UHGV virus genome: UHGV-0076294
Reading direction: 5' to 3' (one strand)
DNA from: a virus
DNA: 64,000 nucleotides
The notes beneath the pieces are model-generated. The model worked only from the letters and a program-made list of their open reading frames with translations, was not told the DNA's origin and ran no database searches. Position numbers and translations under genes: made by a program. Of this stretch, positions 28,648-59,808 are shown piece after piece (the first letter of the stretch is position 1; each line of letters starts with the position of its first letter).

Positions 28648-28670
28648 TCAGATATATTTTACTTAGGTGA
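28648..28670 (+). promoter_or_regulatory. Conserved intergenic motif cAGATATATTTTACTTAGGTGAG (candidate phage promoter)
   Basis: Near-identical copy at 32954-32976; related copies upstream of other plus-strand genes. Confidence 0.4.
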
Positions 28671-28673
28671 GTA

Positions 28674-28697
28674 GGGGCTGAAGTGCGAATTCAGCCC
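28674..28697 (+). other. Hairpin immediately downstream of candidate promoter motif
   Basis: ggggctgaa-gtgcg-ttcagcccc. Confidence 0.35.
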
Positions 28698-28926
28698 CTA
28701 TAGGCACGTTTCTTTTCGAAACGGATACTAACAATAGCGGAGGCTACCATGCTTGCTGAACAGAAAGACGGTATCGAAGAGGTAGTGAGACTCTTCCGTC
28801 ACTATTCACCTTATCTACCACGGTAATCATAGTATTACTTAAAATTTACAGATTGTCCCTTTATTCTGCTACTCGGGATACCGGTAGGGGGTAGGGGGCA
28901 ATCTGTATACGGATATAAATAGCGGA

Positions 28927-28943
28927 GGTATACGTAGTATACC
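28927..28943. promoter_or_regulatory. Inverted repeat ggtatac-gta-gtatacc (operator-like) upstream of 29005 gene
   Basis: 7-bp arms, 3-nt spacer, read directly. Confidence 0.3.
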
Positions 28944-29004
28944 GACATACTCTTCCCAGAGGAACGTAGTGACTTCCTTATTCCTTTTTAGGAGAATAAA
29001 CCCC

Positions 29005-29739
29005 ATGAGAGAATTATTAGACGATATCTTTACCAACACCAGTTTAGAACTTTCTTCTACGCTGGTTAACGAATTAATAAAACAATACCAACCTGCTAAG
29101 TTAGTCACTGTCAGGGTAGTTAACCCTAAAGATTATCTAGGCTGCGATATCATAGACGGTACGATCGATGAGTACGCAATTGGTATTTACGCCGACCGGG
29201 TCTTCTTTGTTCTTAATACCGAAACCGGTGTCATGTTAACCTACACGATGAGTAGTGATGCCGAACACGAAGTTGTAGCGGAACATATTCGCCACATTGC
29301 CAGCACGCCTACCTTTTCCGACGTTACGTTTATTGGGGGAAGCACTATGCTGACGTTATTCTCTTACTTCCCACTGTTTAGACATGGGGTAGGGCTAATC
29401 AAGCATGTAGAAAACCTTCCCGCTGATGTAGAATTAACGTTGCTCGGTCGGGACATCAGTCTTTATCCCTTAAAAGATAACGGTAAGTTATACGGTTTAC
29501 GTATCTATGTTTCTTGGTTAAAGGGATACCGTGTTATTGAACTGATTGCATCAGATTTAACAAAACAAATCCCAGAAGTGGAAACGATTTCTAAAGCCAC
29601 CCACCTAGTTGAGATTAACCCAGACGATCCGTTTTTACAGTATCACACAGAAATTGCCCTTCGTGGTATCGCTGCCGTAAAAGGGTGGGGGCGTGCTGAG
29701 CTTACGAAGGACTATCTGCTGTTAATTAAAACCGCGTAA
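29005..29739 (+). CDS. Hypothetical protein, member of GW...LL C-terminal paralog family
   Basis: SD aggagaa before ATG 29005 (GTG 28969 alternative); C-terminus AAVKGWGRAELTKDYLLLIK. Confidence 0.5.
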   Translation: MRELLDDIFTNTSLELSSTLVNELIKQYQPAKLVTVRVVNPKDYLGCDIIDGTIDEYAIGIYADRVFFVLNTETGVMLTYTMSSDAEHEVVAEHIRHIASTPTFSDVTFIGGSTMLTLFSYFPLFRHGVGLIKHVENLPADVELTLLGRDISLYPLKDNGKLYGLRIYVSWLKGYRVIELIASDLTKQIPEVETISKATHLVEINPDDPFLQYHTEIALRGIAAVKGWGRAELTKDYLLLIKTA

Positions 29740-29765
29740 GTAAAAAACCTAAAGGAGAAAATATC

Positions 29766-30323
29766 ATGTCTACTATTGAACTGAAACAACAAGTTATTGG
29801 ATTTGTTAAGCTGGGTGCAGGTAAACACCAACTTGATTATCCTTGCGTTATACAGTCTAACATTATCCCGGTCGATACAATGATTACCGGTCTTCAAGTT
29901 GAAGAATTTGATGGAGATGCTGTGGTTTGGGAACGCCATTTCACACGACTTAATTATCGTAAAGTCGGAGATAGTTTTACCGAAATATTCCGTCATCTGT
30001 TTTCCGGTACCGGATGGAAAGTAACGAGTGCGTTCTACGGTGGGAATGTTATTACGCTTCTAGACACGGGGAATGCACGTTATCTCGTGAACTTTACTTT
30101 CGCAAGACGCTACGCATATTTCCCCAACCCGCTTACGTGTACGTTAAGTAACCCAGGAATGCTACTAACAGATAAAGAAGCAGACGTTCTACTCGCCGAA
30201 CTGCGAAAAGACGGTTGCGACGTTGACGATTGGGAAACATTGATCGCTGTCGCTAAAGCACACGGTTGGTATACCGTACGTAAAATCGGTCGACAGTTGT
30301 TGTTCTTAGCTTATAATGTTTAA
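29766..30323 (+). CDS. Hypothetical protein, GW...QLLF paralog family
   Basis: SD aaaggagaaa; C-terminus AHGWYTVRKIGRQLLFLAYNV. Confidence 0.55.
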   Translation: MSTIELKQQVIGFVKLGAGKHQLDYPCVIQSNIIPVDTMITGLQVEEFDGDAVVWERHFTRLNYRKVGDSFTEIFRHLFSGTGWKVTSAFYGGNVITLLDTGNARYLVNFTFARRYAYFPNPLTCTLSNPGMLLTDKEADVLLAELRKDGCDVDDWETLIAVAKAHGWYTVRKIGRQLLFLAYNV

Positions 30324-30334
30324 AGGATGATATC

Positions 30335-31462
30335 ATGCATATCTACCATAACTCACCGTCACATAAACTTTATCTTGAATTGCTTTTCGAGGATTACAAG
30401 AAAGGTGTACCGAAAATACTACTCAGTATCCCCTGTGCCACACAAACTGATTTGTTCGGTCGCGTTTTTGGTTGTACTGTTAACGCTTTGCCAGAACCAA
30501 TCTGTGCACCTATAGATAATTGTGTTTTCGACGAGCGAATTGAGGGTTTTCAATTCACCTTTTACGTAAACGATTCTTTACCGTACGACAAACTTTACGT
30601 TCGTGAGTTGAAATCAAATCAGCGGTTAATGTACCGCGTCTACCCACCCCACAAAGGATCGTTACTGGAGTATAAAATCAGGCGGCTACCTTACGAGGGT
30701 GTGAAATTACTCGACCAGCAGGATATAGCTTTTCTGGAAGAACTTTGCGGATTCGAAATTGAGAAAATTCACGTAACCCAGGAAATATCCCGAAACGTAC
30801 CTAGTCGTCTCACCCCTAACGGCGGGTTTCCGTACGAGTTCACCGACACAGGGCTAAGGCTCGTAACCGAATTTAACGACGTAATGTATTACGCAGTGTG
30901 TATTGAACGTAAAGTAGTGGAGAAAGAAATGGCAAGTACATTGAAAGAAGAATTAGCTCAATTCATTCGTGACGTCGAAGAGAAAAGCAAGAGCGATCAC
31001 ATTTTCTCACAACGCTATCCTGAACTTATTGACGAAACCACCGATAGTGTCGTCGATGGTATACGCATTTTCCCAAGCAACCTTGCAACTTACCGACTGC
31101 CCAGCCTTAACCAGCTTAAAGTCATGGAAATGCTAAAAGACGTTTTAGCAAAAGCGGGTTGGGAATATCGTTTCGATTGCAATTTCGAAGGGATGGCGTT
31201 ATTCGTTACAAAGAAAAATTATAATTTGACAATCGATCTGCCCAAAAGTCAGTATTACAGTTTCTTCCCGAAAGCGGATGACCGCACTGAAAAAGAACCT
31301 GCGTTGTTACTTGATGCGGCAGAATCCAATACGCTAATGATGCGTCTGCGGATGGTTGACAAAAAGTTAAATACCGGCCATCTAACGACGATCGGTAAAG
31401 ATTACGGTTGGAAATCTGTCGAACCGTACGGCAGTCAGCTGCTGTTTGTTGCTGACCTTTAA
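30335..31462 (+). CDS. Hypothetical protein, GW...QLLF paralog family
   Basis: SD aaggatg; C-terminus LMMRLRMVD...YGWKSVEPYGSQLLFVADL. Confidence 0.55.
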   Translation: MHIYHNSPSHKLYLELLFEDYKKGVPKILLSIPCATQTDLFGRVFGCTVNALPEPICAPIDNCVFDERIEGFQFTFYVNDSLPYDKLYVRELKSNQRLMYRVYPPHKGSLLEYKIRRLPYEGVKLLDQQDIAFLEELCGFEIEKIHVTQEISRNVPSRLTPNGGFPYEFTDTGLRLVTEFNDVMYYAVCIERKVVEKEMASTLKEELAQFIRDVEEKSKSDHIFSQRYPELIDETTDSVVDGIRIFPSNLATYRLPSLNQLKVMEMLKDVLAKAGWEYRFDCNFEGMALFVTKKNYNLTIDLPKSQYYSFFPKADDRTEKEPALLLDAAESNTLMMRLRMVDKKLNTGHLTTIGKDYGWKSVEPYGSQLLFVADL

Positions 31463-31497
31463 TAAGTGAAACTACACTTTCTCTAACTGCCGCGCTT

Positions 31498-31524
31498 TAG
31501 TCGCGGCTTTTGTTAAGAAGGAAA
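31498..31524 (+). terminator. Hairpin terminator
   Basis: gccgcg-ctttagt-cgcggc followed by ttttgtt. Confidence 0.5.
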
Positions 31525-31529
31525 AAGAA

Positions 31530-32303
31530 ATGAAAATCCATTTAGACGACCTCTTTAAATCTGAACCGTATATGGTTAAAGGTTCGCTGGCTTCATTGTT
31601 GCTAGACGATAGATTTCATCGAACGCTGCAATTACAATCGGTCGAATCCGCGCCAACAGAAGACGTGGGTCTTTATCAACGTATCACTTATACGCGCGGA
31701 GAATATCGGCGATATAAACCTGATACGCTAACCGTTAAACTCTGGCAAGTGGCCACAGGCAAAGTATTAACTTATCGCGCTGTTGGTCTGTACTACGTTG
31801 AACGTGCCTACGCATGGTTAGAAGAAGTTAAAGAAATGGATTACGGCCGTTTAAGCAAAAGACTGCGCGATAATAACGCCAGTTTACCGCTACGTAATTA
31901 TTTCTCCACAATTGAAAATAGTCGTTGTTTCGTTTCACGCGAATCCATGATATTGCCTGGGGCTGATGTTCAGACGACACTAAAAGATGTGGTTGTGAGG
32001 AAAATCTTTCATGAATCTGAACACGTTGGATTTCGTATCTATTTAACGCACAAGAGGCCATTTACCGTGATTCATCTTGTTACCGTACCCGAAGGCTCGG
32101 CAGTCGTACGTGAACTTCCTGACGCACGTGACCGTAGTCCTAATGAGCCACTTTACTTAATGTCAGGAACAAAATCAGAATCTTTGATGTCCCGTTACAG
32201 CATGGTTGATGTTGTTGATACTGCTATGAAATTAGGTTGGAAAGAAGTACAACAGCACGGCAAACAATTGCTGTTTATCGCAGATGTAAATCTCAATAAC
32301 TAA
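31530..32303 (+). CDS. Hypothetical protein, GW...QLLF paralog family
   Basis: SD aagaaggaaaaag; C-terminus LMSRYSMVD...LGWKEVQQHGKQLLFIADV. Confidence 0.55.
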   Translation: MKIHLDDLFKSEPYMVKGSLASLLLDDRFHRTLQLQSVESAPTEDVGLYQRITYTRGEYRRYKPDTLTVKLWQVATGKVLTYRAVGLYYVERAYAWLEEVKEMDYGRLSKRLRDNNASLPLRNYFSTIENSRCFVSRESMILPGADVQTTLKDVVVRKIFHESEHVGFRIYLTHKRPFTVIHLVTVPEGSAVVRELPDARDRSPNEPLYLMSGTKSESLMSRYSMVDVVDTAMKLGWKEVQQHGKQLLFIADVNLNN

Positions 32304-32315
32304 AGAGGTGGTACC

Positions 32316-32894
32316 GTGTACCGATTAATAGAAATGAGAAAAGACGTTTGGTTGGAAAACCTCGTCGACGGGGAGCTTGAGGGAATAGAGCTTTCCTTAC
32401 CAGAGAGAGCGGACACGGTATTGGCCTTTCTGGTAAAACAGGCAGACCGTGAGCCGGTAGGAATCTTCAGCGTGGACTATAAAGACCCGCGAGGGATTCA
32501 TTTACGGAACATTTGCAGTGGTTTGGAAAACTTACCGGCTAATCCGTTCTTAAACTACGCAAAACGTAAACTCCGACCGGGACAACACCTCTGGGTAACG
32601 TTAGCGCCTGACATTAGAATCATGCGTGACGATTACTCGGCGTTTGTACAGGCAACGAAAGTCAGTCTGTATAACCCGAACGCAGAGCGTACCGATATGC
32701 CGTTTATAATTACCTTAGAAGACGATGGAACGCAAGAAGGTATTGAGGCAATTACGGAATTAGTAAACTCTTATCCGGTTGCCACTATCGAGTTAGAAAA
32801 CCCAAGTCGTTTACAACTGGGTGACCTGCTCGAATGGATTGAACTGAATACAGAATTCTTAATCAATTCTCGTCAGTATCGATTCGACGTTTAA
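32316..32894 (+). CDS. Hypothetical protein
   Basis: GTG start with SD aagaggtgg; followed by terminator. Confidence 0.5.
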   Translation: MYRLIEMRKDVWLENLVDGELEGIELSLPERADTVLAFLVKQADREPVGIFSVDYKDPRGIHLRNICSGLENLPANPFLNYAKRKLRPGQHLWVTLAPDIRIMRDDYSAFVQATKVSLYNPNAERTDMPFIITLEDDGTQEGIEAITELVNSYPVATIELENPSRLQLGDLLEWIELNTEFLINSRQYRFDV

Positions 32895-32898
32895 CAAC

Positions 32899-32930
32899 GG
32901 TGGGGTGTAAACCCCACCTTTTATTTTTTG
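32899..32930 (+). terminator. Rho-independent terminator
   Basis: ggtgggg-tgtaaa-ccccacc followed by ttttattttttg. Confidence 0.7.
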
Positions 32931-32953
32931 TTCTCTAACATTAAAAATAATCT

Positions 32954-32976
32954 CAGATATATATTACTTAGGTGAG
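32954..32976 (+). promoter_or_regulatory. Conserved motif cAGATATATATTACTTAGGTGAG (candidate promoter)
   Basis: Second near-identical copy; sits between terminator and secreted-protein gene block. Confidence 0.4.
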
Positions 32977-33023
32977 AGTTAAGATTAACTCTTTTACTTG
33001 TTAACCCCACGAGGAGAAAAACA

Positions 33024-33485
33024 ATGAAAATCTTCACTTCCTTTTTAATCGGCCTTCTCGCAATCGGATTCAATACTGCACACGCTGCAATCAATAGTTG
33101 GGAACAACTACAGAACCCAGGTCAAGCTGTTTACGAAATCGAAGACACCACCGGAAACGGACTGTCTATCAACTGTGACACTGAAACCGCGAATCGCAAA
33201 TTTTACGGTCGCATGGTTTGGTATTACGGGGAACCTGTAGGTGCAACTAACGCTGAAGACAACACGCTGGATATTGTCGTAAATGGCAAAACTTACAACA
33301 TCCCTACCGTGGATGGTAGTGACAAAGCAGAACTCGCTTGGGTGGCTTTCGTTAATGCTATCGGCAATGCCAAAACTTTCAGTGTGAATATCAACGGAAA
33401 CGAAGCCGCTAACTTTACCGTAGAAGGCGAACGTCTGTCTGAAACTTTCTTCCAGAACTGTGGACACACCCGTCCTAACAAATAA
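33024..33485 (+). CDS. Small secreted protein (signal peptide)
   Basis: SD gaggagaaaaa; N-terminus MKIFTSFLIGLLAIGFNTAHA. Confidence 0.55.
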   Translation: MKIFTSFLIGLLAIGFNTAHAAINSWEQLQNPGQAVYEIEDTTGNGLSINCDTETANRKFYGRMVWYYGEPVGATNAEDNTLDIVVNGKTYNIPTVDGSDKAELAWVAFVNAIGNAKTFSVNINGNEAANFTVEGERLSETFFQNCGHTRPNK

Positions 33486-33512
33486 GTATTAATCTTTTTA
33501 GAGTGCGTGAAA

Positions 33513-33899
33513 ATGAATATCAGAACTATACTTTATACCATCATTATTTTCTGTGCAGTCGGTATTACTGCCACTTATGCTTTCGGTGATTCGGATGTCC
33601 GCTATTACGAACCGGCTCCTGACTCACCGATTATCAACCCGGATGAGTCGCCTACGTTAATGCGCAGTTTCGGTAAACTGCAAGTTTATCGTTTAGTGCG
33701 TGGTGAATCGTGTACCGGATTACTCATTGCTGACACCCGTGCACAAGTCTACCAACGTCTGACGGATATCGCCTGCGAACAACCAAAAGTCATGTCGGTC
33801 AGTATTCATCCGTTAGAGGTCGGTAACTATACTGCTGTGGACTTCTTCCATAATGCAGAACTGATTGGTCGTATTACTTTAAATCGTAGCGCTGAATAA
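33513..33899 (+). CDS. Small secreted protein (signal peptide)
   Basis: N-terminus MNIRTILYTIIIFCAVGITATYA; ATG 33513 preferred over GTG 33507. Confidence 0.5.
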   Translation: MNIRTILYTIIIFCAVGITATYAFGDSDVRYYEPAPDSPIINPDESPTLMRSFGKLQVYRLVRGESCTGLLIADTRAQVYQRLTDIACEQPKVMSVSIHPLEVGNYTAVDFFHNAELIGRITLNRSAE

Positions 33900-33917
33900 T
33901 TTAATGGAGAAATTACA

Positions 33918-34400
33918 ATGAAACGTTTACACACCCTGATGCTCTTCGTGGCTATTCTGTTCACGGGCTTTAACTTTAACGCAGAAGCGGCTAGTGTAAA
34001 ACAAGCACTTAGTTGTAACCCGGAAGCCTGGGCTGAACAACCCGGTGCGTGTCCTGATATCAATACGCTCTATACCGACGACGCTACTTATAAAGCCGCG
34101 ATCGATAAAGCGTTGAAACCGGTCGGACTGGACGGATTATTCGGTAAAGATGGTGTAATGAATGGTCCTGGCGGCGATGTTATTCCCGTGCAAATCAACG
34201 GCAAAATCTGGCTTGAAGCTACTGGTTGTAAAAGCAATGCTTGTGGTTGGGAATACATCACGACGCTTTATAACCCGCAGACCCATGTCGTGGTAGGTTA
34301 CTATTACAACGTCGACCCAGGTTACCTGGTTTGGTTTGGCGATATCGGCGTTAATGAATTCGCCTATCTGGTTAAGAAATACGTAGCTACGGTTAATTAA
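33918..34400 (+). CDS. Small secreted protein (signal peptide, several Cys)
   Basis: SD tggaga; N-terminus MKRLHTLMLFVAILFTGFNFNAEA; paired cysteines suggest disulfides. Confidence 0.55.
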   Translation: MKRLHTLMLFVAILFTGFNFNAEAASVKQALSCNPEAWAEQPGACPDINTLYTDDATYKAAIDKALKPVGLDGLFGKDGVMNGPGGDVIPVQINGKIWLEATGCKSNACGWEYITTLYNPQTHVVVGYYYNVDPGYLVWFGDIGVNEFAYLVKKYVATVN

Positions 34401-34415
34401 TTTAAGGAGTCTGTC

Positions 34416-34826: not shown

Positions 34827-34836
34827 GGAGTAAACC

Positions 34837-35226: not shown

Positions 35227-35237
35227 TGTGTAGTCTT

Positions 35238-35276
35238 GACCCCGGCACGTGCCGATTCGTCCGGGGTCCTTTTTAC
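35238..35276 (+). terminator. Hairpin terminator
   Basis: gaccccgg...ccggggtc followed by ctttttac. Confidence 0.55.
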
Positions 35277-35305
35277 GACCTGTTTTACCTAAAGGAGAAT
35301 TAAAA

Positions 35306-40695: not shown

Positions 40696-41220
40696 ATGCT
40701 TACCTCACTCGGTAAGACCGTTATGCTAACGATACTTCCAGAATCGGATATTGACAACGACCTGTTTAACGCCCCTGAGCGCTTCAAGGTCGTTACGATA
40801 AATTGTGTAGGGGCAATGGGTCGGGGTATCGCTTTAGCGTGCAGAGAACGCTATCCTGGTCTTTATCAGGACTACCGAGAACGTTGCTTCGCTAACGAGA
40901 TACGAATAGGGAATGTGTACGTTTATCCCGAGGAAAACTGCATTCTCTTACCAACTAAAACACATTGGAAACTGAAATCCCAGGTTTCTTATGTTATCGC
41001 GGGTATCACCGCGTTGGCAGATGCCGCAGAAAACTTAGAGGGTGGGGTGGCTTTACCGCCGTTAGGGATGGCCACCGGTTGGTTGACAAAAGCTGAACGT
41101 CAACAAATCTTTTTGTTTATCGAAAAGAAACTCGTACCAAGGAGACAACATTACCGTTTCTATTTACCCGAACCGCTTTACCAAGAAGCAAAACCTTTAA
41201 TTCCAAACCTTTTTAAATAG
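40696..41220 (+). CDS. Macro-domain-like protein (ADP-ribose binding/processing candidate)
   Basis: VVTINCVGAMGRGIALA resembles macro-domain VNAAN..GGGV motif and GGVALPPLGMATG resembles the IAFPAIStGiyG motif; start uncertain (40696 or 40723). Confidence 0.45.
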   Translation: MLTSLGKTVMLTILPESDIDNDLFNAPERFKVVTINCVGAMGRGIALACRERYPGLYQDYRERCFANEIRIGNVYVYPEENCILLPTKTHWKLKSQVSYVIAGITALADAAENLEGGVALPPLGMATGWLTKAERQQIFLFIEKKLVPRRQHYRFYLPEPLYQEAKPLIPNLFK

Positions 41221-41235
41221 ATATTATCATTAGGG
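41218..41235 (+). promoter_or_regulatory. AGATATTAT-type motif (candidate promoter) upstream of lytic transglycosylase gene
   Basis: tAGATATTATCATTAGGG; variant of the motif at 28648 and 32954. Confidence 0.3.
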
Positions 41236-41320
41236 CACACAACAAAGGAGTACCAGCTGTCCGCGCCGTGATTTCGTTCTACGGAATACGGAAATGTATA
41301 AATCCAACTGGAGAACTAGT

Positions 41321-42007
41321 ATGTTTCGTATCTTCTTTCTTTTACTGGTAACACTTTTCGCGTTTAACGCATACGCATCCAAATCCGCACCCAGTGCCAA
41401 ACACCATCGTGAATTCGAAATGATTCAAGACCGTTTCGAACGGGTAAAACCGTTGATTGTGGAAATCTCTCGAAAGCAGGGTGTTGATCCTAATTTAATG
41501 ACCACGCTAATCTATCGAGAGTCACGGTTTAATCCGAAGGCGTATAATCGAACGTCTAAAGCGCACAGTCTGGTTCAGATGCTACCGAGCACAAAGCGCA
41601 ATTTGCTAAAACTCTACGGTGCCGAAATCGGACTTAGTCGCAATGCGGATTTGTACAATCCTCGTAATGCGGTGCTATTGGCTTCCGTCTACGTTAAACA
41701 TTTAGAAAAGGGGTTAACTAAACGACTCAAACGCAAGCCCACTATTGCAGAAATAGCATTGGCTTATCACTGGGGTGAAAGCGGTGCACACGCCAGGATT
41801 AAAAGCAAGTCTCGGGCAGCACAACGAGAAATGGCGAGCTTTATGAAAGATGCAACGTTCTACAGTGCGAAAATCAACAAGCCTGTAGCATCTCGTCAGC
41901 TTGCGTTTGCGAAGAAACCAGAACGCCAGATTCAGTTAGCAGAAGTTAACCGAATTTGGGATACGATAAACACCAGTTTTCCATTTAAACAAGGAGTCAC
42001 CCTTTGA
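41321..42007 (+). CDS. Lytic transglycosylase (SLT domain) with signal peptide
   Basis: SD tggagaa before ATG 41321; signal peptide MFRIFFLLLVTLFAFNAYA; catalytic-region motif YRESRFNPKAYN...AHSLVQMLPST. Confidence 0.7.
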   Translation: MFRIFFLLLVTLFAFNAYASKSAPSAKHHREFEMIQDRFERVKPLIVEISRKQGVDPNLMTTLIYRESRFNPKAYNRTSKAHSLVQMLPSTKRNLLKLYGAEIGLSRNADLYNPRNAVLLASVYVKHLEKGLTKRLKRKPTIAEIALAYHWGESGAHARIKSKSRAAQREMASFMKDATFYSAKINKPVASRQLAFAKKPERQIQLAEVNRIWDTINTSFPFKQGVTL

Positions 42008-42513: not shown

Positions 42514-42519
42514 TACTTG

Positions 42520-42554
42520 CCCCTAATCCAATCGGATTAGGGGTACTTTTATTT
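42520..42554 (+). terminator. Rho-independent terminator
   Basis: cccctaatcc-aatc-ggattagggg followed by tacttttattt. Confidence 0.7.
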
Positions 42555-44052: not shown

Positions 44053-44087
44053 CCCCTACTCCCGGAGGAGTAGGGTTAATTCTTTTT
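44053..44087 (+). terminator. Rho-independent terminator
   Basis: cccctactcc-cgga-ggagtaggg followed by ttaattcttttt. Confidence 0.65.
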
Positions 44088-44661: not shown

Positions 44662-44700
44662 AGCTACCCTACTCCTTTTCGGGAGTAGGGTAATTTCTTT
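44662..44700. terminator. Bidirectional terminator between convergent genes
   Basis: ccctactcc-ttttcg-ggagtaggg followed by taatttctttt. Confidence 0.65.
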
Positions 44701-48512: not shown

Positions 48513-50024
48513 ATGAAGAACGTTGATGTTGCTGTACTTTATACCGACGGTAGCCATTTAACCTCACCGATGGGAACAGGCGGTGGGATTCACGGCTACC
48601 TGTTTAACAAGGAAGAGATTGTTGACGGTGGCGTTTATCGCCACCCTACCATTCCCGAAGGGATTACGACCTCTGGTTATCGTCAGATTAACAAAGAGGA
48701 AAAACTTCCTGCGTTACCAGACTCTGTTGAGTTCGTAGACTGTGTTATTCCGGTACCGAAACACCACCACTCTGATGTTGCAGAGATTGTTGCTTTTTTA
48801 ACCGTTTTCGAAAAAGCACCGTTCGTTGCAAAAAACTACGTTATCTATATCGACGCGTCTTACGTTGTGAATACGTTTAACGATTGGATTGACGGTTGGG
48901 CTAAGCGGGACTGGCGACGGGCTGATGGAACCCCTATCGCGAACCTTGAACTGGTTCAACGGATGTGGGAAATTAAGAAACGTCTGAAGAGAGAAGGGAA
49001 AGGGATTCGTGTTCTTAAAATCAAAGGACACTCTGGTCACTACGGTAACGAACGGGCTGACGGGCTGGCACGAAAGGGATCATCCATCTCTGCGCACGGA
49101 GAAGGTTTAGATTATCAGGCGTACTGGTCAGCAGACGAAATCCCGGAAGAACAGCAGGAAGAAATCGTCAGTGAAGGCGTTAACGTTGCCGCGTTTCCTG
49201 ATATTTGCGTAACTAAGTTCTGTTACCCGATGGTAAATGAGCAACACCCTACGGTTAAAGTAAACGGTGAAAATCTCTATTACATGTTCGGGGGTAACCA
49301 CGCAAAACAGAAGGACGATATTGTCTTCGTCGGAAAATACATCCCTGATGCGCAGTTTTGTGTGATGTTTACACGTGAACCGTGGACGAACGTTTACGAT
49401 TTGGTTAACGCCCACGCTGCTAAAGCCTGGGAGGGCGTACCACGTTTGCGTCAGTTTGACCCTATCGCTGTTGTGTTCAACCTGTTCGTAAAACGTAAGA
49501 AGTTTGCGGAAGCAGCGGCTAACGGTATCCCGGTTGACAAAATGCACTTTAGCGAAGACAAAAACCTGTGGATGTACGAAGACTTGTCTATCAGTCGTAT
49601 TCTGCGTCCCGCGTTATTGTCATACCGCTGCGTAACCATTCGTGATGAACTGGCAGAGTGGCTGCGTGACTGTTTGGAAGGCAAATCGAACGTTGTCTTA
49701 AATGACATTACCGATTTGCTTTATGACGAAAAAGGTAAACCCACCAAAGACTTTTACCGAAACGTGGATAAAGGGTTTGACGTTTCCATTAAAATTCCTA
49801 ACGGGAAGGTTGACGTTAAAACTATTCTGACGCGTGCTATCGACATACCGACACGTACGGAAATCAACCGTATCAAAGAACCAAACGGGAGATTCTACAT
49901 TGCCGTACGACGTCCAGAACGTCAGTATATTGAATATGCGTTAGTGTATATCGGTGAGAAGTATCATGGTCTGTGGTGTGGTTATTATTCAAACAAACGA
50001 ATATTGACCGATAAGGAACTTTGA
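48513..50024 (+). CDS. RNase HI-like domain protein with about 300-aa C-terminal extension
   Basis: LYTDGS, IDASYVVN, and KIKGHSGHYGNERADGLARKG match catalytic motifs of type 1 RNase H; C-terminal two-thirds has no recognisable motif. Confidence 0.7.
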   Translation: MKNVDVAVLYTDGSHLTSPMGTGGGIHGYLFNKEEIVDGGVYRHPTIPEGITTSGYRQINKEEKLPALPDSVEFVDCVIPVPKHHHSDVAEIVAFLTVFEKAPFVAKNYVIYIDASYVVNTFNDWIDGWAKRDWRRADGTPIANLELVQRMWEIKKRLKREGKGIRVLKIKGHSGHYGNERADGLARKGSSISAHGEGLDYQAYWSADEIPEEQQEEIVSEGVNVAAFPDICVTKFCYPMVNEQHPTVKVNGENLYYMFGGNHAKQKDDIVFVGKYIPDAQFCVMFTREPWTNVYDLVNAHAAKAWEGVPRLRQFDPIAVVFNLFVKRKKFAEAAANGIPVDKMHFSEDKNLWMYEDLSISRILRPALLSYRCVTIRDELAEWLRDCLEGKSNVVLNDITDLLYDEKGKPTKDFYRNVDKGFDVSIKIPNGKVDVKTILTRAIDIPTRTEINRIKEPNGRFYIAVRRPERQYIEYALVYIGEKYHGLWCGYYSNKRILTDKEL

Positions 50025-50692
50025 TGCTGATTGTTTTTAGTCAAGCGTTATCGATGGCACCGAGTTATATCCAGATACGCTTTTCAGCAATTGCGCGTCA
50101 GCAGTGGGGCTTTAAAGCCCCCTATTCTGACGACCACTATACACTCGGTGAAGTAGCACTTGAACTTGCTTTACGTTCATTGTGGGAAATCATTGCATTG
50201 TACAATGCAGGTTGTGATATACCGAAAGATTGTTTCCCACAGCGGGTGATTGCACAAGGCACTACGAACACTTACGGTAATCCGGCATTGGTGGAAGAGT
50301 GCTTAGGCTACGCTAACCAGTCTGGGGAACTGCAACATAACTTTAATCTGGTGATTAACAAAGTCTGGAGTGAGCTGGAAAGCTACCCTGAAAAGATTAT
50401 CTGGTTTGATCGTAACCAATTCGTTAAGGAGGTGGCCAGTAAACGACCCGTACGTTTAGTTGCCTTAAAGCCCACCGACCTTGATTTGAAACAAACCTAT
50501 CCCTTCCCAGAGGAAATTCGACTTTCTCCAGAAACCGTAGGTCACACTATTTTCAAACAAGGTGACGCCTGGATACTTCCTCACGATCTAGACCGTTTCC
50601 TGCTCAACTCCGATCAGATTCACTCCGGCTATGATTCTCTCGTAAAAGAGTTTCACATCGATCCCTATTTCGCTAAAAACTTTCTTAGATAG
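50024..50692 (+). CDS. Hypothetical protein
   Basis: SD aagga before ATG 50024, overlapping previous stop. Confidence 0.5.
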   Translation: MLIVFSQALSMAPSYIQIRFSAIARQQWGFKAPYSDDHYTLGEVALELALRSLWEIIALYNAGCDIPKDCFPQRVIAQGTTNTYGNPALVEECLGYANQSGELQHNFNLVINKVWSELESYPEKIIWFDRNQFVKEVASKRPVRLVALKPTDLDLKQTYPFPEEIRLSPETVGHTIFKQGDAWILPHDLDRFLLNSDQIHSGYDSLVKEFHIDPYFAKNFLR

Positions 50693-50706
50693 ATATTATT
50701 CAGGTG
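50691..50706 (+). promoter_or_regulatory. AGATATTAT-type motif (candidate promoter)
   Basis: tAGATAGATATTATTCAGGTG upstream of 50730 gene. Confidence 0.3.
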
Positions 50707-50729
50707 TAGAACCCTCGGAGTTAATCACC

Positions 50730-51467
50730 ATGTTGAAAGTTTATGTCCCTCAATTACAACGTATTAATCCCTCGTTGTTCGAGGGATTCTTTTATAAAAT
50801 TTGGCCACAATACTTCAATGAACACCTGAAAGACTCAAAATGGTCATCTGTCCAAGGAGAATTCTTTTACACCGCACAATCAGCCTGTACAAATGTCTTT
50901 ACCCACCTCATCTCTGAGGTTATTGACGCTGTCAACACCAACCGAAACTTTGACCTTCGTGACGTCATAATAGATCTCTCAGCGATCTTCGATAACTACG
51001 ATTGCGATGACGCAGTATTCGAACATTTCTCCTCTGAAGATGTGTGGGAGGCCGTTTATCAATGGCTAGAATACTACGTGAATTTTCTACTTTCCTCGAA
51101 CATGTTAGAAAATTACAATAAAGCACTCTTTCCCATTTATAACGACTTAATGAACGTTAAACTGACAAAGAATCTCGTTGGTTTTTGGTATTCGACCTAC
51201 GACGCTGAAAGCAGGTTGTGGGAAAAAGAAATGATCGCTTACGGCATCGAGCGCGGCGATTATGATGAATTATATCGATGTTATTGGCCATTCAATCATT
51301 ACGAAAAAGGGTGTCAAGGCGATCCGTATTTGTGGTCTTTTTATTTCTGTAATCAGACTGGTGTTATTTATCTTGAAGACACCGGTGTACGAATCCCTAA
51401 CGGTACTGATGTAACATACTGCCAATTACGTAAAGACCGGGCTGACGCCATTTATCAGGATTATTAA
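50730..51467 (+). CDS. Hypothetical protein
   Basis: ORF preceded by conserved AGATATTAT motif and SD ggag. Confidence 0.5.
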   Translation: MLKVYVPQLQRINPSLFEGFFYKIWPQYFNEHLKDSKWSSVQGEFFYTAQSACTNVFTHLISEVIDAVNTNRNFDLRDVIIDLSAIFDNYDCDDAVFEHFSSEDVWEAVYQWLEYYVNFLLSSNMLENYNKALFPIYNDLMNVKLTKNLVGFWYSTYDAESRLWEKEMIAYGIERGDYDELYRCYWPFNHYEKGCQGDPYLWSFYFCNQTGVIYLEDTGVRIPNGTDVTYCQLRKDRADAIYQDY

Positions 51468-53030: not shown

Positions 53031-53063
53031 ACCCTAGCTTCGGCTAGGGTTACTTTATTTTTA
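53031..53063 (+). terminator. Rho-independent terminator
   Basis: ccctagc-ttcg-gctaggg followed by ttactttattttt. Confidence 0.65.
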
Positions 53064-53084
53064 ACCATTTTAGGAGAATATACC

Positions 53085-54017: not shown

Positions 54018-54027
54018 GAGAATTATA

Positions 54028-54912
54028 ATGTTAAGACGCAGAATTTATGGAGACACGCTTCGACGTATTAGTGAAGCTATAGAGACTGCACACAAAGACT
54101 TGTTTGGTCTGAAGGAAGATCGTTTTCTAACGTTTGTCAGGGAACACAAGAGGCAACTTCCTGTAACCTTTCTGCCCGTTAACGACCCAACGTACCGTGT
54201 GTTCGGCACCACCAAACAGGTGCCGTATTCTATTCGCCAATCGTTAGGTTTGGGCTGGCAATACGCAGGTATTGAAATTATCTCTGATAAAGAGTTGATG
54301 GGACTACTTGCAGACACAGAACGTTTAACGGATATTCCGTACGCGTGGATTGAAGCAATTCCTTCATTCACCTTTTCCGTGACTGTAAAGATTAACGAAC
54401 TACCCGCTACGCTCTTTATCGGTCGTCGTAAATTCGAAGGTGAGGAAGTATTGTTCGTTTTACGATGGGTGGAGATAAATCAGCGGCACTGTTGGTCAAC
54501 CAAGATTTATCGGTTCAACAGAAAGGCAGATGACTTTGTTAGTTTAGAGCCTTACTTTGCTAACGAGTCAAAGGACGAGGAACTTCTGGATGAGGTACAT
54601 ATCGGTTTATATCTTTCCTCGCGGGTGAAGAAATCGGAACGCGAGAGACGGGAATACCGTGGTAGAACGACACGTTACGTACCTGATACAGAAATCCTCC
54701 CACGCAGAGAACCTGTCGTCGTTGACGTAAGTCCAGTACAACGCGAAGACTTAGAAAAACAACGCAGGGAAGGCAGGAGAATCTGTTTAACGCCTCATCG
54801 CGCAGCACACATACGCAGGGCTCATTGGAAACGGGTCTGGTGTGGGCCAATGACAGGACCACGCTGGCAGGAGTGGCGATGGATTGCACCCACCTTTATA
54901 TCTGGTTTTTAA
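54028..54912 (+). CDS. Hypothetical protein, paralog of 53085-54017
   Basis: SD aggagaa before ATG 54028; C-terminus AAHIRRAHWKRVWCGPMTGPRWQEWRWIAPTFISGF. Confidence 0.55.
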   Translation: MLRRRIYGDTLRRISEAIETAHKDLFGLKEDRFLTFVREHKRQLPVTFLPVNDPTYRVFGTTKQVPYSIRQSLGLGWQYAGIEIISDKELMGLLADTERLTDIPYAWIEAIPSFTFSVTVKINELPATLFIGRRKFEGEEVLFVLRWVEINQRHCWSTKIYRFNRKADDFVSLEPYFANESKDEELLDEVHIGLYLSSRVKKSERERREYRGRTTRYVPDTEILPRREPVVVDVSPVQREDLEKQRREGRRICLTPHRAAHIRRAHWKRVWCGPMTGPRWQEWRWIAPTFISGF

Positions 54913-54928
54913 TGTGAAAATAAAGATT

Positions 54929-54976
54929 ACCCCTAGACCACAAGGTCTAGGGGTAGCTTTTACTTTTTATTTTTTG
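54929..54976. terminator. Bidirectional terminator between convergent genes
   Basis: cccctagacc-acaa-ggtctagggg followed by tagcttttactttttatttttt. Confidence 0.7.
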
Positions 54977-55722
54977 TTTGCCTTCAGCGCTTTCAGGCGT
55001 TCAGCCGTCACGTTCAGACATTCAATCAATTCGTTCACCTGTTTCATGAACAAACCAAACAGTTCAACCCAATCGGATGCAAAGTCTAACATCGCTGTCA
55101 GTTCTTTTGCCACGTTAGGATGAATGTTTTGTTCAGACAGAATCGTTGCAGAGGCTTTAATAGACTCGATGGATTTGTCGATGTTCGTACGAAGTTTCTT
55201 CGTGATTTCAACGTTCAGTGCTTTTGCACGGTTAAACGCAATATCGATCTCCGTAGCACTGTGGTACGTTTTCTCAATCGGACGCTGGTCAATAACGTTG
55301 TTGATGTAAGACTTAGCCAACTGGTTAACCAGGTCTTTCGGATTCACGTTACGTAACGGAATGTTAACGTTTTTATAACGGAAACCGATAGGTAATGACA
55401 GTACGCCCACATCATGTGTAAGGGCGGAAAGTTGCAACTCAACAGGTAAAAGGACACCGTCGTAGATCTTCTGTAATGAACTCCATACCGATTCTAAGCG
55501 GTTAATGTGATCCATTACGTAGGTATTGAAGCCTGGCGGTACAATAACCAACATGCCTGCAAAGTGTAAGAATTTTTCCTGTTGCATCCACTTGGAAACG
55601 TCTGACATGTCGTCGTAAGTGGTTAATGCAATCTCTTGTTGAGGGCCACTGAACCCTTTGGGTAAGATTGCAGACGCTTTAGCGGCAAAGCTAGTTAACG
55701 CTGCAAGTGGATTTACGTTCAT
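54967..55722 (-). CDS. Hypothetical protein
   Basis: Minus-strand ORF bracketed by bidirectional terminator. Confidence 0.5.
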   Translation of the reverse strand: MNVNPLAALTSFAAKASAILPKGFSGPQQEIALTTYDDMSDVSKWMQQEKFLHFAGMLVIVPPGFNTYVMDHINRLESVWSSLQKIYDGVLLPVELQLSALTHDVGVLSLPIGFRYKNVNIPLRNVNPKDLVNQLAKSYINNVIDQRPIEKTYHSATEIDIAFNRAKALNVEITKKLRTNIDKSIESIKASATILSEQNIHPNVAKELTAMLDFASDWVELFGLFMKQVNELIECLNVTAERLKALKANKK

Positions 55723-55819
55723 TTAAAACCTCGGATTATAAGTCAGGGTTACATAGTAAAGTCTTTTTACAGTTCATCCTGAACTTATGACCGAGATTAT
55801 CTCATAAAGGTAAAGCTCG

Positions 55820-56119
55820 ATGAAAATCAAATTACTGACTCGAAACACCACGCCTCGTCTGGAACCGGAAATCTATCTTACCCCGGTGAAAAAAGACAAA
55901 GAAGGTAAGCCTATTCAAGTAGGTAAGATTCTTAGCGTGACCTCTTTACCTAACGGTAAGCGCGTGATGGAATTAGAAATCGACGAGCGCAACAAACGTC
56001 GTTTCGAGTCTATTGAGAACCCCTATCCTGAAAAATCGGAAGAAGTCACCGAGTGGGTAGAGACCTACTTTGAATTCTGGCACAAACGCCGTCTTCTTCT
56101 TCCGACCAAGAATCGTTAA
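55820..56119 (+). CDS. Hypothetical protein
   Basis: SD aaaggtaaag; basic C-terminus. Confidence 0.45.
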   Translation: MKIKLLTRNTTPRLEPEIYLTPVKKDKEGKPIQVGKILSVTSLPNGKRVMELEIDERNKRRFESIENPYPEKSEEVTEWVETYFEFWHKRRLLLPTKNR

Positions 56120-56134
56120 TTATTGGAGCGCTAA

Positions 56135-57631
56135 ATGGCAGGCCCAACTAAGCAAGTTATCGGTGAAGTAATTCGTCCTCGTTTTAACGTTTATACCATC
56201 ATGGACCACGCCTTAGGCAACTACGAAAGAGGCGAAGATGGTTTATACTACCTTAACGGTGGTTTTGCCCACATCATGGGTTTCGCGGGTCGTGGTAACA
56301 CCTTCAAATCCACACTGTTGGATTTCTGTATCTTCCAAATCCTACAACGCTATAAAGCAGAGTGGGGTTCGAAATACGATACCGAAGTGTCTGCTGCCCT
56401 CGATCGCTTAGAGACCGGTTATATTTCTGCCATGCACGCCAACGGTATTGACGATGGAACTTCGGTACTGGAACTTATTCACGAAGGTCGTTATAACCTC
56501 GTTGGTTCTGACGTGATGCCAGGGGAACAATATTACAGTGACTATATTCGTGATGAAGTGGAAAAACGCTTCAAGCAGTATATGTCTGGTAAAACGCGTG
56601 TAACGCCGTTCCTCGACCCGGTTCGTCGTAAGCAAAAAGAAATCCTTGACCCGTGGCTGTATTCTATCGACTCCCTGTCGGAGTGGCACTCGTCTTCTCT
56701 GGAAGACAAGCACGCTAAAACGGATATCGGTGATTCCGATCAGAACATCCTCAACGCCCACGACGCCTTACAGAAATCGAACATGATGAGCCGTTGGCCG
56801 TCTGCGTTTGCCCGTGGTGGTTTCTACATGGGCTTTGTTGCACAGATGGCCGATGACTCCGGTAAGGCGATGGCAGGCGGTCGTCAAGGACAGAAAGCAA
56901 ATGCGAAACTGCTGGACGATGCGAACGACGATCTCAAATTCGCAGGGATTCCTCGTCGTCAGTTAAGCTTCCTGACTAACTCGTTTATTGTTGCGACAAA
57001 ATCAGGCGAGCTGAAAAAAGACCAGAGTTATAACGCCCAGACCGGTGTTAACGAAGAACTTTACCCAACCGCACGTTCAAAAGCCATGAACGCGTCGGTT
57101 AACGACCTGAAAGTTATCACCTTTACGCAGTACCGTGCTAAAGGCGGTCACACAGGCGTGAAGTTCCAGATGATCTTCTCGCAAGAGATGGGTCTACTGT
57201 ATCACCTGAGCCTGTGGCACTACCTGAGTGATACCCTGAAAAAATCCGAATTTGGATTTACATCCAGCGGTAGCGGTGGTTCCATTAAAGAACTCCAGAT
57301 TCTGCCTGGTGTTAAATTCCAGCGTACGACGATTCGCGACATGATCGACGATAACCCGAAACTGCGTCGGGCATTAGAAATCACGGCCGCGATTGCGTAC
57401 ATGCAGAACAACTACCATCGTTTAGAGGTTAAATACCACCTCACGATGGAAGAAATCTACAAACTCATTGATGAAAAATGGGATTGGAATGAGATTCTGG
57501 AGAACACCGTAGAATACTGGATGTTTAAAGACCAAGAAACGAAAGGTGGTAAACGTACGTTAACTGCCCGTACGATTCTGGGTATGGCCGTGGACGGCCT
57601 GGAACCGAAGTTCCTCACCAAAAAGAAATAA
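56135..57631 (+). CDS. ATPase candidate with RecA/UvsX-like Walker motifs (recombinase-like, uncertain)
   Basis: GFAGRGNTFKST resembles the UvsX-type P-loop (G....FKS) and LYSIDSL a RecA-type Walker B; length (498 aa) atypical. Confidence 0.3.
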   Translation: MAGPTKQVIGEVIRPRFNVYTIMDHALGNYERGEDGLYYLNGGFAHIMGFAGRGNTFKSTLLDFCIFQILQRYKAEWGSKYDTEVSAALDRLETGYISAMHANGIDDGTSVLELIHEGRYNLVGSDVMPGEQYYSDYIRDEVEKRFKQYMSGKTRVTPFLDPVRRKQKEILDPWLYSIDSLSEWHSSSLEDKHAKTDIGDSDQNILNAHDALQKSNMMSRWPSAFARGGFYMGFVAQMADDSGKAMAGGRQGQKANAKLLDDANDDLKFAGIPRRQLSFLTNSFIVATKSGELKKDQSYNAQTGVNEELYPTARSKAMNASVNDLKVITFTQYRAKGGHTGVKFQMIFSQEMGLLYHLSLWHYLSDTLKKSEFGFTSSGSGGSIKELQILPGVKFQRTTIRDMIDDNPKLRRALEITAAIAYMQNNYHRLEVKYHLTMEEIYKLIDEKWDWNEILENTVEYWMFKDQETKGGKRTLTARTILGMAVDGLEPKFLTKKK

Positions 57632-57636
57632 AGTCG

Positions 57637-57663
57637 TTAGGGTAGGGTAATCCCCTACCCTAG
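57637..57663 (+). other. GC-rich hairpin (weak terminator or RNA processing site)
   Basis: tagggtaggg-taat-cccctaccct, no clear U-tract. Confidence 0.35.
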
Positions 57664-57676
57664 CTAAGGAGTCGTT

Positions 57677-57976
57677 ATGCGTTATCAAACGGAGATTGTG
57701 GAGCGCTTAAGCGAAGGTTTAGCCAGCGTCAGTCTGGAAACAGCAGCGGCATTTCGTGAGACTTTCGCTACTTTCTTTCCCGATCGTGAATCTTTTTGTT
57801 TAAAGGTCGGTGAATATTATTCCAAGTTACTCGAACACTACGGTTACCCGCCGGTGAAATTCGACGTACCTGAAAACACCGACGACATCAGTTATTGGAT
57901 TGAAACCCTCGAAGCAGGGACACTTTCCAACTTGCGTAAGGCGGTAGAAAATGAGACTCGATCCAGCGCGGCGTAA
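57677..57976 (+). CDS. Hypothetical protein
   Basis: SD aaggag. Confidence 0.5.
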   Translation: MRYQTEIVERLSEGLASVSLETAAAFRETFATFFPDRESFCLKVGEYYSKLLEHYGYPPVKFDVPENTDDISYWIETLEAGTLSNLRKAVENETRSSAA

Positions 57977-58619
57977 AAAAGCAGAAGCTTACGCCTTACA
58001 AATCTTAAACCTGGTTGACCCCTCTGGGATTAATGCAGAGGCAGCAAAGAAAGCTTTTGCTCGAATGACAGACGAACAGTTTAATCGTCTTCGTGAAGGG
58101 CTACCGATTTACAACCCGGTTGGCAGCAAAGTTAAAATAGACCACATGCGAAACGTTGAGCTATGTCGTGTTTTAGGTTTGAACCTGGAACAGCGGTTGT
58201 GGTTAACTGAGCCGAAAACGGGTGTTTTCCATCGTACCCGCTACCCACATCTGGTATTGCGCTTGCCTGCGCGTCGTCAAACGCAGATGCAAGAAAAGAA
58301 AATGGCAGTAGCGAAGAACGACAAAGTTCGTGATAAACTCTCCGGTCAAGTTGTTGGTCCTTCTAAAGCATCTGGTGTATCTTTCCCAGAAGCGTACATC
58401 ATGTACTCCGATGGTCACGACTGGACACTGAAAGAGTTTCTGTGGGCGCGTGGGGGTAACGAAGCTTTACAACGTGCGTTCTATCAATCGTTACGTCAAA
58501 CCGGTAAGGGACGTATTGACCTGCCGGGAGCAGAACGTACCAGTTCGAAAGCAACACGTACCTGGTCTGCGTATCTGAAAGCGATGCACATTGGTAACAA
58601 CATAGGCCATCCGTCATGA
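57951..58619 (+). CDS. Hypothetical protein
   Basis: Overlaps previous gene; basic protein. Confidence 0.45.
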   Translation: MRLDPARRKKAEAYALQILNLVDPSGINAEAAKKAFARMTDEQFNRLREGLPIYNPVGSKVKIDHMRNVELCRVLGLNLEQRLWLTEPKTGVFHRTRYPHLVLRLPARRQTQMQEKKMAVAKNDKVRDKLSGQVVGPSKASGVSFPEAYIMYSDGHDWTLKEFLWARGGNEALQRAFYQSLRQTGKGRIDLPGAERTSSKATRTWSAYLKAMHIGNNIGHPS

Positions 58620-59338
58620 GATTTTCTCGACGTTTTTTGATTGATATCGATGCGTTGTTTGACACCCGAATCGGTTGGGTCAAAGCCATCAAACCTGAAA
58701 GATTGGAAATTATGGATTACGACGTTTATCGTCGTCGTTTTACGGAGGAATGGGCGACTGTCTTGGGGTTTGAGAATTGGAAAGAGGAATATCAGAAACG
58801 TGATAAACGCGCGTTAATGAATGCGGAACCCACCGAACTGTTGTTGACGATGAAGAACGAGTTCGAATGTATGTTACTCGAAATCGAGATGCATTCGCCT
58901 ATCGAAAAACCGACGCTGACAATTAACACCTGGCCGTATACTGATCTTACTGACCAAGAAATGCAAACGTTCTTGCAGATGTTCCGTATCTATTACGATA
59001 TGGTGCAGGTTGAGTTAGTGTCGTGGCCGCATTCGGAACTTACGCCGGGTCGTTTAGCGACAGCTTGGGATTGTTGGATAATGTACGATTGGTTCGCTTG
59101 GATTGAACTCAATGCGAAACATCTGAAAAAGCCTATCCCTAGCTTTACCATTACGCACCCTGCCCTGCTAACGCCGGAACTTACAAAAGAGACGGTAGAG
59201 CAGCTTAAACGCGATGGTGTGAATCCGTTCAAGGAACACATCCGGTTTATGGCAGAGTGGGTCGGTGTCGACCCACGTGATTCTGCGCTATTTAGTCTGG
59301 CTCGTCCGAAGAAGGACGCGCAAACGCCGCAGTCATAA
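58616..59338 (+). CDS. Hypothetical protein
   Basis: ATGA overlap with previous stop. Confidence 0.5.
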   Translation: MRFSRRFLIDIDALFDTRIGWVKAIKPERLEIMDYDVYRRRFTEEWATVLGFENWKEEYQKRDKRALMNAEPTELLLTMKNEFECMLLEIEMHSPIEKPTLTINTWPYTDLTDQEMQTFLQMFRIYYDMVQVELVSWPHSELTPGRLATAWDCWIMYDWFAWIELNAKHLKKPIPSFTITHPALLTPELTKETVEQLKRDGVNPFKEHIRFMAEWVGVDPRDSALFSLARPKKDAQTPQS

Positions 59339-59756
59339 TGGACTTCACGTCAATTTGTTCGCCAACCGGAGCCAACTCCCCTTCCGAGATTTCTACGTTA
59401 GGAATGTCTGGAAGGGTGGGTTGGTAACCATTATTTTCATCAAGTTCTTCATCGTGACGTTTTATTTTCACGTTACCGCGTTGCATCAGAATTGTATTCA
59501 GTGCGTTAGCCAAGTCTTGGTTCGCTTCACTGTTTTTCTGGGCAGCGGCAACACGACGTTTAGAAATGATCTGCTTATCTAGGTCGTTTAATAACGTCCC
59601 GATACGATCCACAGTCTTTAAGTCTTTGTGAGCATTAGGATCGTCTAAGATTAGATTGACGATTCTGACACGGGCTTGTTGCGTTTGGCGGAGAAGCGAT
59701 TCTTCGTCGTCTACTTCACCATCTAACGCCTGGTATTTCACTTCTTCTTCAGCCAT
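59292..59756 (-). CDS. Hypothetical protein
   Basis: Minus-strand ORF convergent with 58616-59338, overlapping 3' ends. Confidence 0.45.
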   Translation of the reverse strand: MAEEEVKYQALDGEVDDEESLLRQTQQARVRIVNLILDDPNAHKDLKTVDRIGTLLNDLDKQIISKRRVAAAQKNSEANQDLANALNTILMQRGNVKIKRHDEELDENNGYQPTLPDIPNVEISEGELAPVGEQIDVKSIMTAAFARPSSDEPD

Positions 59757-59787
59757 TTAAAACCACCTCATTTTCAAAAAGAAGTCA

Positions 59788-59808
59788 GACAGATATTATT
59801 TACGTGAG
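59788..59808 (+). promoter_or_regulatory. AGATATTAT-type motif (candidate promoter)
   Basis: cAGACAGATATTATTTACGTGAG upstream of 59829 gene. Confidence 0.3.

Follow-up and report, generated by a model that had tools for sequence, protein, structure and literature searches.

The window analysed here is a 64,000-nucleotide (nt) stretch of viral DNA (UHGV virus genome UHGV-0076294) in which a conserved promoter-like element recurs, in five copies, ahead of genes on the plus strand. Genes for large virion and baseplate proteins occupy a minus-strand block at 4-28 kb, and the plus-strand block contains those for SbcC-like, RNase H-like and UvsX-like proteins. Intergenic DNA makes up 7% of the window and 5% of the SPN3US genome. 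The 1727-amino-acid (aa) virion protein is 56% identical to that of Erwinia phage Asesino and 49% identical to that of Salmonella phage SPN3US, and the window is syntenic with SPN3US from approximately 135 to 195 kb. [quoted passage not shown]

57951-58619, plus strand: gene encoding the vRNAP beta-C homologue (phrog_3233 'RNA polymerase beta subunit', E 3e-93, 222 aa)

The protein identities, the synteny with SPN3US and the vRNAP beta-C homologue establish that the window is from a phiKZ-related jumbo phage of the SPN3US/Asesino group. A virion-packaged multisubunit polymerase is thus represented by the gene at 57951-58619, the remaining subunits being encoded outside the window. The IMG/VR contig 3300014543_000002 (IMGVR_UViG_3300014543_000002) was nearly identical to the window at the sites compared. 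The results described below indicate that the five elements are very probably early promoters of this phage, read by its virion polymerase.

The element has the architecture A-tract/TTT/CAGATA/TATATTAC-N6-G. It was evaluated with two profile hidden Markov models (HMMs), one built from the five copies and one built from SPN3US sites only and independent of the window. The copies fall into two classes, A and B, and are named c1 to c5.

28634-28671, plus strand: putative promoter c1, class A, ...AATCAGATATATTTTACTTAGGTGAG; found by both HMMs; core TATTTTAC at 28655-28662; predicted +1 G at 28669
32939-32976, plus strand: putative promoter c2, class A, perfect consensus CATTAAAAATAATCTCAGATATATATTACTTAGGTGAG; found by both HMMs; core TATATTAC at 32960-32967; predicted +1 G at 32974
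41199-41236, plus strand: putative promoter c3, class B, the weakest copy, ...TAAATAGATATTATCATTAGGGC; found by both HMMs; predicted +1 G at 41234
50671-50708, plus strand: putative promoter c4, class B, ...TAGATAGATATTATTCAGGTGTA; found by both HMMs; predicted +1 G at 50706
59771-59808, plus strand: putative promoter c5, class B, ...CAGACAGATATTATTTACGTGAG; found by both HMMs; predicted +1 G at 59806

With the five-copy HMM the members scored 17.7-25.0 bits, compared with 4.7 bits for the next best site when both strands were searched (128 kb of strand). The SPN3US-only HMM returned the same five sites with E values from 1e-6 to 0.011, the next best E value being 2.3. All five copies lie on the plus strand with an intergenic predicted +1 and point toward downstream genes, for which the predicted leaders of c1-c5 are 80, 50, 60, 24 and 23 nt long, and no copy was found within the minus-strand virion/structural-gene block. 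Near-identical copies at the first two positions, reported in the initial annotation, are present as the plus-strand 22-mers AGATATATTTTACTTAGGTGAG at 28650-28671 and AGATATATATTACTTAGGTGAG at 32955-32976, with zero occurrences expected by chance (100 shuffles), although the coordinates given there were off by 1-2 nt. The related copies placed near 41218, 50691 and 59788 were confirmed by both HMMs. A weaker copy had also been proposed near 55791; the sequence at 55791-55812 on the plus strand, AGATTATCTCATAAAGGTAAAG, was missed by both HMMs, has no SPN3US site at the corresponding position and was rejected as a member of the family.

The copies had originally been aligned on AGATAT, for which the register [T/G]AT(A/T)TTA(C/T)-N6-G was found to be a better choice. 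In this register c1 and c2 read TATWTTAC and c3-c5 read GATATTAT, the AT-rich TATATTAC-like core [T/G]AT[A/T]TTA[C/T] lies near -10 in 5/5 copies, the G at core+6 is likewise present in all five, and the A-tract and T-run occupy positions matching the SPN3US consensus nAnTnnAAnAnATTTCAGATAGATATTATCTnnGTGAn. A search with degenerate published consensus strings allowing three mismatches gave numbers close to chance (47 found vs 54 expected; 9 vs 9.3), indicating that only the profile models separate signal from background. Another sequence, ATCTATATTTTACGAAATGT at 2681-2705 in the divergent region before the gene at 2758-3285, contains the TATTTTAC core without the flanking consensus; it was missed by both models and could be either a degenerate form of early promoter or a match due to chance.

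It had further been stated that each copy lies just downstream of a terminator, which holds for c2 alone (1/5).

32899-32928 (hairpin 32899-32918), plus strand: intrinsic terminator, GGTGGGGTgtaaACCCCACC followed by a T-run, closing the operon upstream of c2

Copies c1 and c5 are located in divergent intergenic regions, that of c1 adjoining the minus-strand baseplate gene at 27654-28619, while c3 and c4 overlap the stop codons of the upstream genes at 40696-41220 and 50021-50692, respectively; the proposed link with terminators is wrong. The predicted +1 of c2 is 50 nt upstream of the ATG at 33024, c3 is 60 nt upstream of a transglycosylase/endolysin-like gene at 41294-42007, c4 is 24 nt upstream of the ATG at 50730, and c5 is 23 nt upstream of the ATG at 59829.

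Conservation of the element extends to other jumbo phages. When 8 kb around c1 and c2 was compared by megablast with 50,697 phage records, matches were confined to approximately 58 bp around c2 and corresponded to intergenic DNA of the jumbo phages SPN3US, phiEaH2 and EC001 and their relatives. The 24-mer of c2 is identical in SPN3US, phiEaH2 and EC001, and the 24-mer TCAGATATATATTACTTAGGTGAG is invariant in five aligned sequences comprising two window copies and the three named phages. The window gave no match in Rfam at gathering thresholds and none in a tRNA scan; no known RNA family therefore underlies the conserved 58 bp. The 18-mer core of c2 was found in 22 IMG/VR stretches, 19 of them on jumbo-size contigs. 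The other three (L016, L020 and L024), on short contigs, share one common unrelated flank without the upstream motif and were treated as chance or unrelated matches. An orthologue of c1 with the same promoter is present in IMG/VR locus L034, and c3 is conserved in loci L005, L008 and L017. A literature search with the exact motif string found no phage paper.

The initial annotation had called for a genome-wide motif search relative to gene starts, which was performed by scanning the complete SPN3US genome with the window-derived model at a threshold of E < 1. In all, 20 sites were detected, all on the plus strand, of which 18 are intergenic (binomial P ~1e-21) and most are 24-90 nt upstream of a start codon. 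Of these, a class B site lies 24 nt upstream of SPN3US_0034, a gene with the annotation RNA polymerase beta subunit 2. Counterparts of three window copies were found at matching positions, c3 at site 174975 before the endolysin gene, c4 at 184065 before the gene at 184093 and c5 at 191623 before the gene at 191651, and the proteins encoded next to c3-c5 are 32-54% identical to their SPN3US homologues. One 38-nt model thus transfers between genomes with proteins approximately 50% identical, so that early operons in metagenomic jumbo-phage contigs become annotatable from sequence alone. For this uncultured SPN3US/Asesino-like jumbo phage the analysis supplies five probable early start points together with operon boundaries.

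The promoter class is one already described for phiKZ, AR9, 201phi2-1, OBP and N1M2. The predicted early promoter is TATATTAC in phiKZ, TATATTACDWHDGTG in 201phi2-1 and ...AKATATTATYWAAGTG, given also as ...YAKATATTATYWAAGTG, in OBP and N1M2, where the motifs were assigned to early operons (PMC7058600). Copy c2 matched the 201phi2-1 string with 0 mismatches and c5 matched the OBP string with 1. In Bacillus phage AR9 the early promoters are AAATATATATTAT-(6N)-G with the G being the mapped start, and the early AR9 transcripts tested accumulated despite blocked translation (PMC5312081), for which reason they were attributed to an injected virion polymerase. Reviews likewise define early promoters of these phages by AT-rich motifs centred at approximately -10 and attribute them to the virion polymerase (PMC7598289, PMC13282480). 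The phiKZ early motif is described as an extended -10 with a T-rich element upstream of -19 (PMC8244752), and the mapped early motifs of phiKZ and 201phi2-1 also have conserved elements near -20 and -30 (PMC8244752, PMC11512511). This architecture was seen directly in the first 50 kb of the phiKZ genome, the part used for comparison, as TTTAAACAG-TATATTAC-N6-G, with N6 then G following 7/8 TATATTAC sites.

Several features are common to the window phage and phiKZ, 201phi2-1, OBP, N1M2 and EL: the core TATATTAC, or KATATTAT in OBP and N1M2, with a G six bases downstream; T-rich and A-rich elements at approximately -20 and -30; the location of sites before operons of small hypothetical genes; and the encoding of split beta and beta' polymerase subunits. 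The SPN3US-like lineage differs from this group: its extended consensus, CAGATATATATTACTTAGGTGAG, is its own, its sites divide into two sub-classes, and those of high consensus are coupled to a hairpin with which the transcript begins, absent from most phiKZ early promoters in the first 50 kb. The experimentally mapped AR9 promoters have an almost identical core, ATATATTA(T/C), with the same 6-nt spacer to the G start. AR9 differs in its Gram-positive host, in its uracil-containing genome and in the absence of the CAGATA and GGTGAG flanks, and the words 'hairpin' and 'stem-loop' occur nowhere in the text of the AR9 paper (PMC5312081).

These comparisons are consistent with a mechanism in which a multisubunit RNA polymerase that travels in the virion and enters the cell along with the DNA would recognise an element of approximately 38 bp without a host sigma factor. 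Recognition would involve the A-tract at approximately -30, TTT at approximately -20, CAGATA from -20 to -15 and (T/G)AT(A/T)TTA(C/T) from -14 to -7. The transcription start would be the conserved G found six bases past the core, a position predicted from the mapped AR9 and phiKZ starts, and the transcripts would span plus-strand operons of small genes of unknown function and DNA-metabolism genes. Again by analogy, transcription from these sites would be early, and the polymerase containing the 57951-58619 subunit is the enzyme expected to read the five promoters.

The comparison of the two classes took in the window, SPN3US and those IMG/VR loci that the 18- and 20-mer cores had identified. 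Class A, represented in the window by c1 and c2, conforms to CAGATAT(A/T)T(A/T)TTAC(T/C)TAGGTGAG, and class B, represented by c3, c4 and c5, conforms to (C/T)AGA(T/C)AGATATTAT...GTGA. Class A sites are accompanied by a hairpin at the predicted transcript start: a stem of at least 5 consecutive pairs beginning from +1 to +3 was present at 22/25 sites compared with 26% of 5,961 control GAG sites (Mann-Whitney P 7e-10), whereas no difference from the controls was seen at the 17 class B sites. The stem begins exactly at the predicted +1 in 17 of 23 distinct hairpins. Stem positions +4 to +8 each show 3-4 different pair types among these hairpins, indicating that the pairing is conserved and the sequence is not. 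Both class A copies in the window have the hairpin.

28671-28701 (+3 to +33), plus strand: c1 stem-loop, 12 bp, TAGGGGCTGAAG...ATTCAGCCCCTA; fold of the 84-nt leader -31.2 kcal/mol, z = -3.8
32974-32993, plus strand: c2 stem-loop, 8 bp, starting exactly at the predicted +1, GAGAGTTAagatTTAACTCTT

In the L034 orthologue of the c1 hairpin the stem is kept and the loop is different. A role of the hairpins as terminators was rejected on the basis of their short, AU-rich stems (-6 to -9 kcal/mol) and the lack of a consistent U-run after them.

The initial annotation had also assigned the copies to a phage-specific class of promoters that have an AT-rich core resembling a -10 element and lack a -35 element of the sigma-70 type, an assignment that the present results uphold, the copies being oriented with the downstream genes. 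The resemblance of the core to TATAAT nevertheless raises the question of whether the sites are host sigma-70 promoters, with TATATT or TATTAT as the -10 element, that are read by the host polymerase at the start of infection. A sigma-70 scan flagged c5 (TTTTCA-17-TATTAT, 9/12 positions) and left the other four copies unflagged, and no -35 hexamer is conserved across the copies at a spacing of 16-18 nt. Conservation is seen instead in CAGATA, at the base that follows the hexamer and in GGTG (-3 to +1). Moreover, sigma-70-like sites in the window from 26000 to 64000 numbered below shuffled expectation (17 vs 31.3, sd 6.3; 18 vs 26.8, sd 5.1), a deficit that fits a phage not relying on the host polymerase. 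The identical 24-mer is found in phages of Salmonella, Erwinia and E. coli, and the same architecture is found in phages of Pseudomonas and Bacillus. Infection and transcription by phiKZ are independent of host RNA polymerase (PMC4666361, PMC7598289). Host sigma-70 promoters are therefore a highly unlikely explanation. Also highly unlikely is that the repeat is an operator for a regulatory protein or another DNA signal, for replication, packaging or recombination, and not a promoter. A highly conserved 24-mer amid diverged genomes could be a protein-binding site, and the adjoining inverted repeat could be a feature of the DNA. Yet the copies are strictly oriented with the downstream gene (20/20 in SPN3US, 5/5 in the window) and are located, almost always in intergenic DNA, at a fixed short distance before ribosome-binding sites. 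In addition, pairing within the inverted repeat is maintained although its sequence varies, a pattern better suited to an RNA structure than to a sequence-specific DNA site.

The sites were likened in the initial annotation to middle or late phage promoters, an analogy that could apply at least to class B (c3-c5), since c3 precedes the endolysin/transglycosylase-like gene and the class differs from class A in having GATATTAT in place of TATATTAC and in being without the 5' hairpin. Middle or late promoters also drive some 201phi2-1 genes for which early expression was expected (PMC11512511). However, the motif instead matches the early class of phiKZ-related jumbo phages, and the middle and late motifs published for phiKZ are different: near -22/-24 there is an AT-rich or TACT element, and TATG, which in the late class has no conservation upstream of it, overlaps the start site (PMC7598289, PMC8244752). 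Upstream of the predicted start the window copies are extensively conserved, and at the start itself they have no TATG. Classes A and B have a common framework and spacing such that a single model detects both, a class B site precedes the polymerase gene SPN3US_0034, the early-operon motifs of OBP and N1M2 match class B, and the minus-strand virion-protein genes at 4-28 kb are preceded by no copy. A middle or late assignment is accordingly improbable, and early promoters read by the virion polymerase remain the preferred interpretation.

Several observations weigh against this interpretation or the association with hairpins. The start site, the timing and the polymerase are assigned by analogy, and a literature search yielded no usable transcriptome, promoter or time-course proteomics paper on SPN3US. 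The location of c3 before a gene resembling a transglycosylase or endolysin, and of c4 and c5 before genes of unknown class, suggests that class B may not be an exclusively early class. In 201phi2-1 the early motif accompanies no more than six of the mapped start sites, and middle or late promoters drive some of the non-virion polymerase genes (PMC11512511), so that motif and timing are not linked absolutely. The hairpin statistics include orthologous sites that are not independent. No consensus structure emerged when 15 hairpin sequences were analysed with MAFFT and RNAalifold, as stem sequence and length vary and MAFFT misaligned the stems; the count of stems anchored at +1, relative to the control GAG sites, was used in place of RNAalifold. 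Finally, the hairpin is missing at most phiKZ early promoters in the first 50 kb, from which it follows that it is lineage-specific and dispensable for recognition by the polymerase.

The coupling of promoter and hairpin, which is lineage-specific, may be the sole part of this system that is undescribed. No mention of it was found in the literature searched. In phage N4, too, the early promoters read by the virion-carried polymerase have an inverted repeat associated with them. That polymerase is T7-like and has a single subunit, and what it recognises is a DNA hairpin located upstream of the start. An N4-type hairpin promoter was rejected for the phage studied here, in which the hairpin is downstream of +1, absent from class B and variable in sequence and the polymerase is multisubunit. 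Another parallel is provided by 5' stem-loops of the ompA leader type in E. coli, in which the stem is also at, or no more than 2 nt from, the 5' end. A stem-loop at the 5' terminus blocks attack by RNase E and RppH, which require a free 5' end. It is plausible, if somewhat short of probable, that the hairpin protects class A mRNAs from decay dependent on a free 5' end (RNase E, RppH); unlike the stabilisation in the ompA-type case, that of class A transcripts is inferred from geometry alone.

Additional elements were observed in the class A leaders. In many of them the 5' hairpin is separated from the ribosome-binding site by a stretch that includes the short conserved element (T)AATCGAC(C/T)ATT or TTCGACTTGTTAACC. 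This second leader element is present in SPN3US at 114030-114045, 223320-223335, 94285-94300 and 65470-65485 and also in the IMG/VR leaders L002, L004, L009, L018 and L023, while the c2 leader of the window retains only ACTTGTTAACC of it (32995-33005). Its repetition suggests a promoter-plus-leader cassette. We tentatively propose, as a possibility still open to considerable doubt, that class A in SPN3US-like phages consists of fixed cassettes in which the promoter is followed by the +1 stem-loop, often by (A)TCGAC(T/C), and then by the ribosome-binding site. If the hairpin were an RNA signal specific to transcripts of the first wave, it would represent an undescribed layer of early-gene control and could shield early transcripts from host decay dependent on the 5' end until phage countermeasures are made. 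More speculatively, it could label transcripts so that they leave the early infection vesicle or are translated preferentially. The way in which mRNA exits this vesicle was listed as an open question in a 2026 review (PMC13282480).

The c1 leader is unusually long, extending approximately 336 nt (28669-29005) to the next large gene with a probable ATG at 29005, and contains two hairpins, a conserved 25-aa open reading frame (ORF) and a structured GGTAGGGGGTAGGGGG region at 28885-28900.

28749-28826, plus strand: small ORF of 25 aa, the first frame after c1, with its own GGAGG ribosome-binding site

The orthologue in L034 (6145-6270) has a similar peptide start, MSTEKKSGLDEVIELF vs MLAEQKDGIEEVVRLF, and the c1 leader could encode an early micro-protein or a non-coding RNA.

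Hairpins resembling terminators were also observed downstream of class A and class B promoters. In EC001 (L003 3040-3090) and SPN3US (165709-165760) two hairpins come after the class A promoter that precedes gp180: the 5' hairpin and, further along the leader, a GC-rich one with a T-run, GGCTACCCTCGGGTAGCC TATTCTTTTTT. The latter resembles a terminator and could produce a short RNA or attenuate transcription. In the window, a terminator-like hairpin with a T-run (AATCCCTCGttgttCGAGGGATT CTTTTAT) is present at 50766-50797, 36 nt inside the ORF that follows c4. Since this ORF matches a protein family over its full length, the hairpin lies within coding sequence, where it might be an attenuator.

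A common terminator stem, CCCTA.../...TAGGG followed by (C)TTTTAT, was found at 27199-27223, 42518-42545, 44054-44075, 44665-44692, 54927-54956 and 57692-57716. Several of these terminators are at convergent gene junctions, where they are readable as terminators on both strands, and they recall the conserved phiKZ terminator motif ending in TTAT (PMC10914365).

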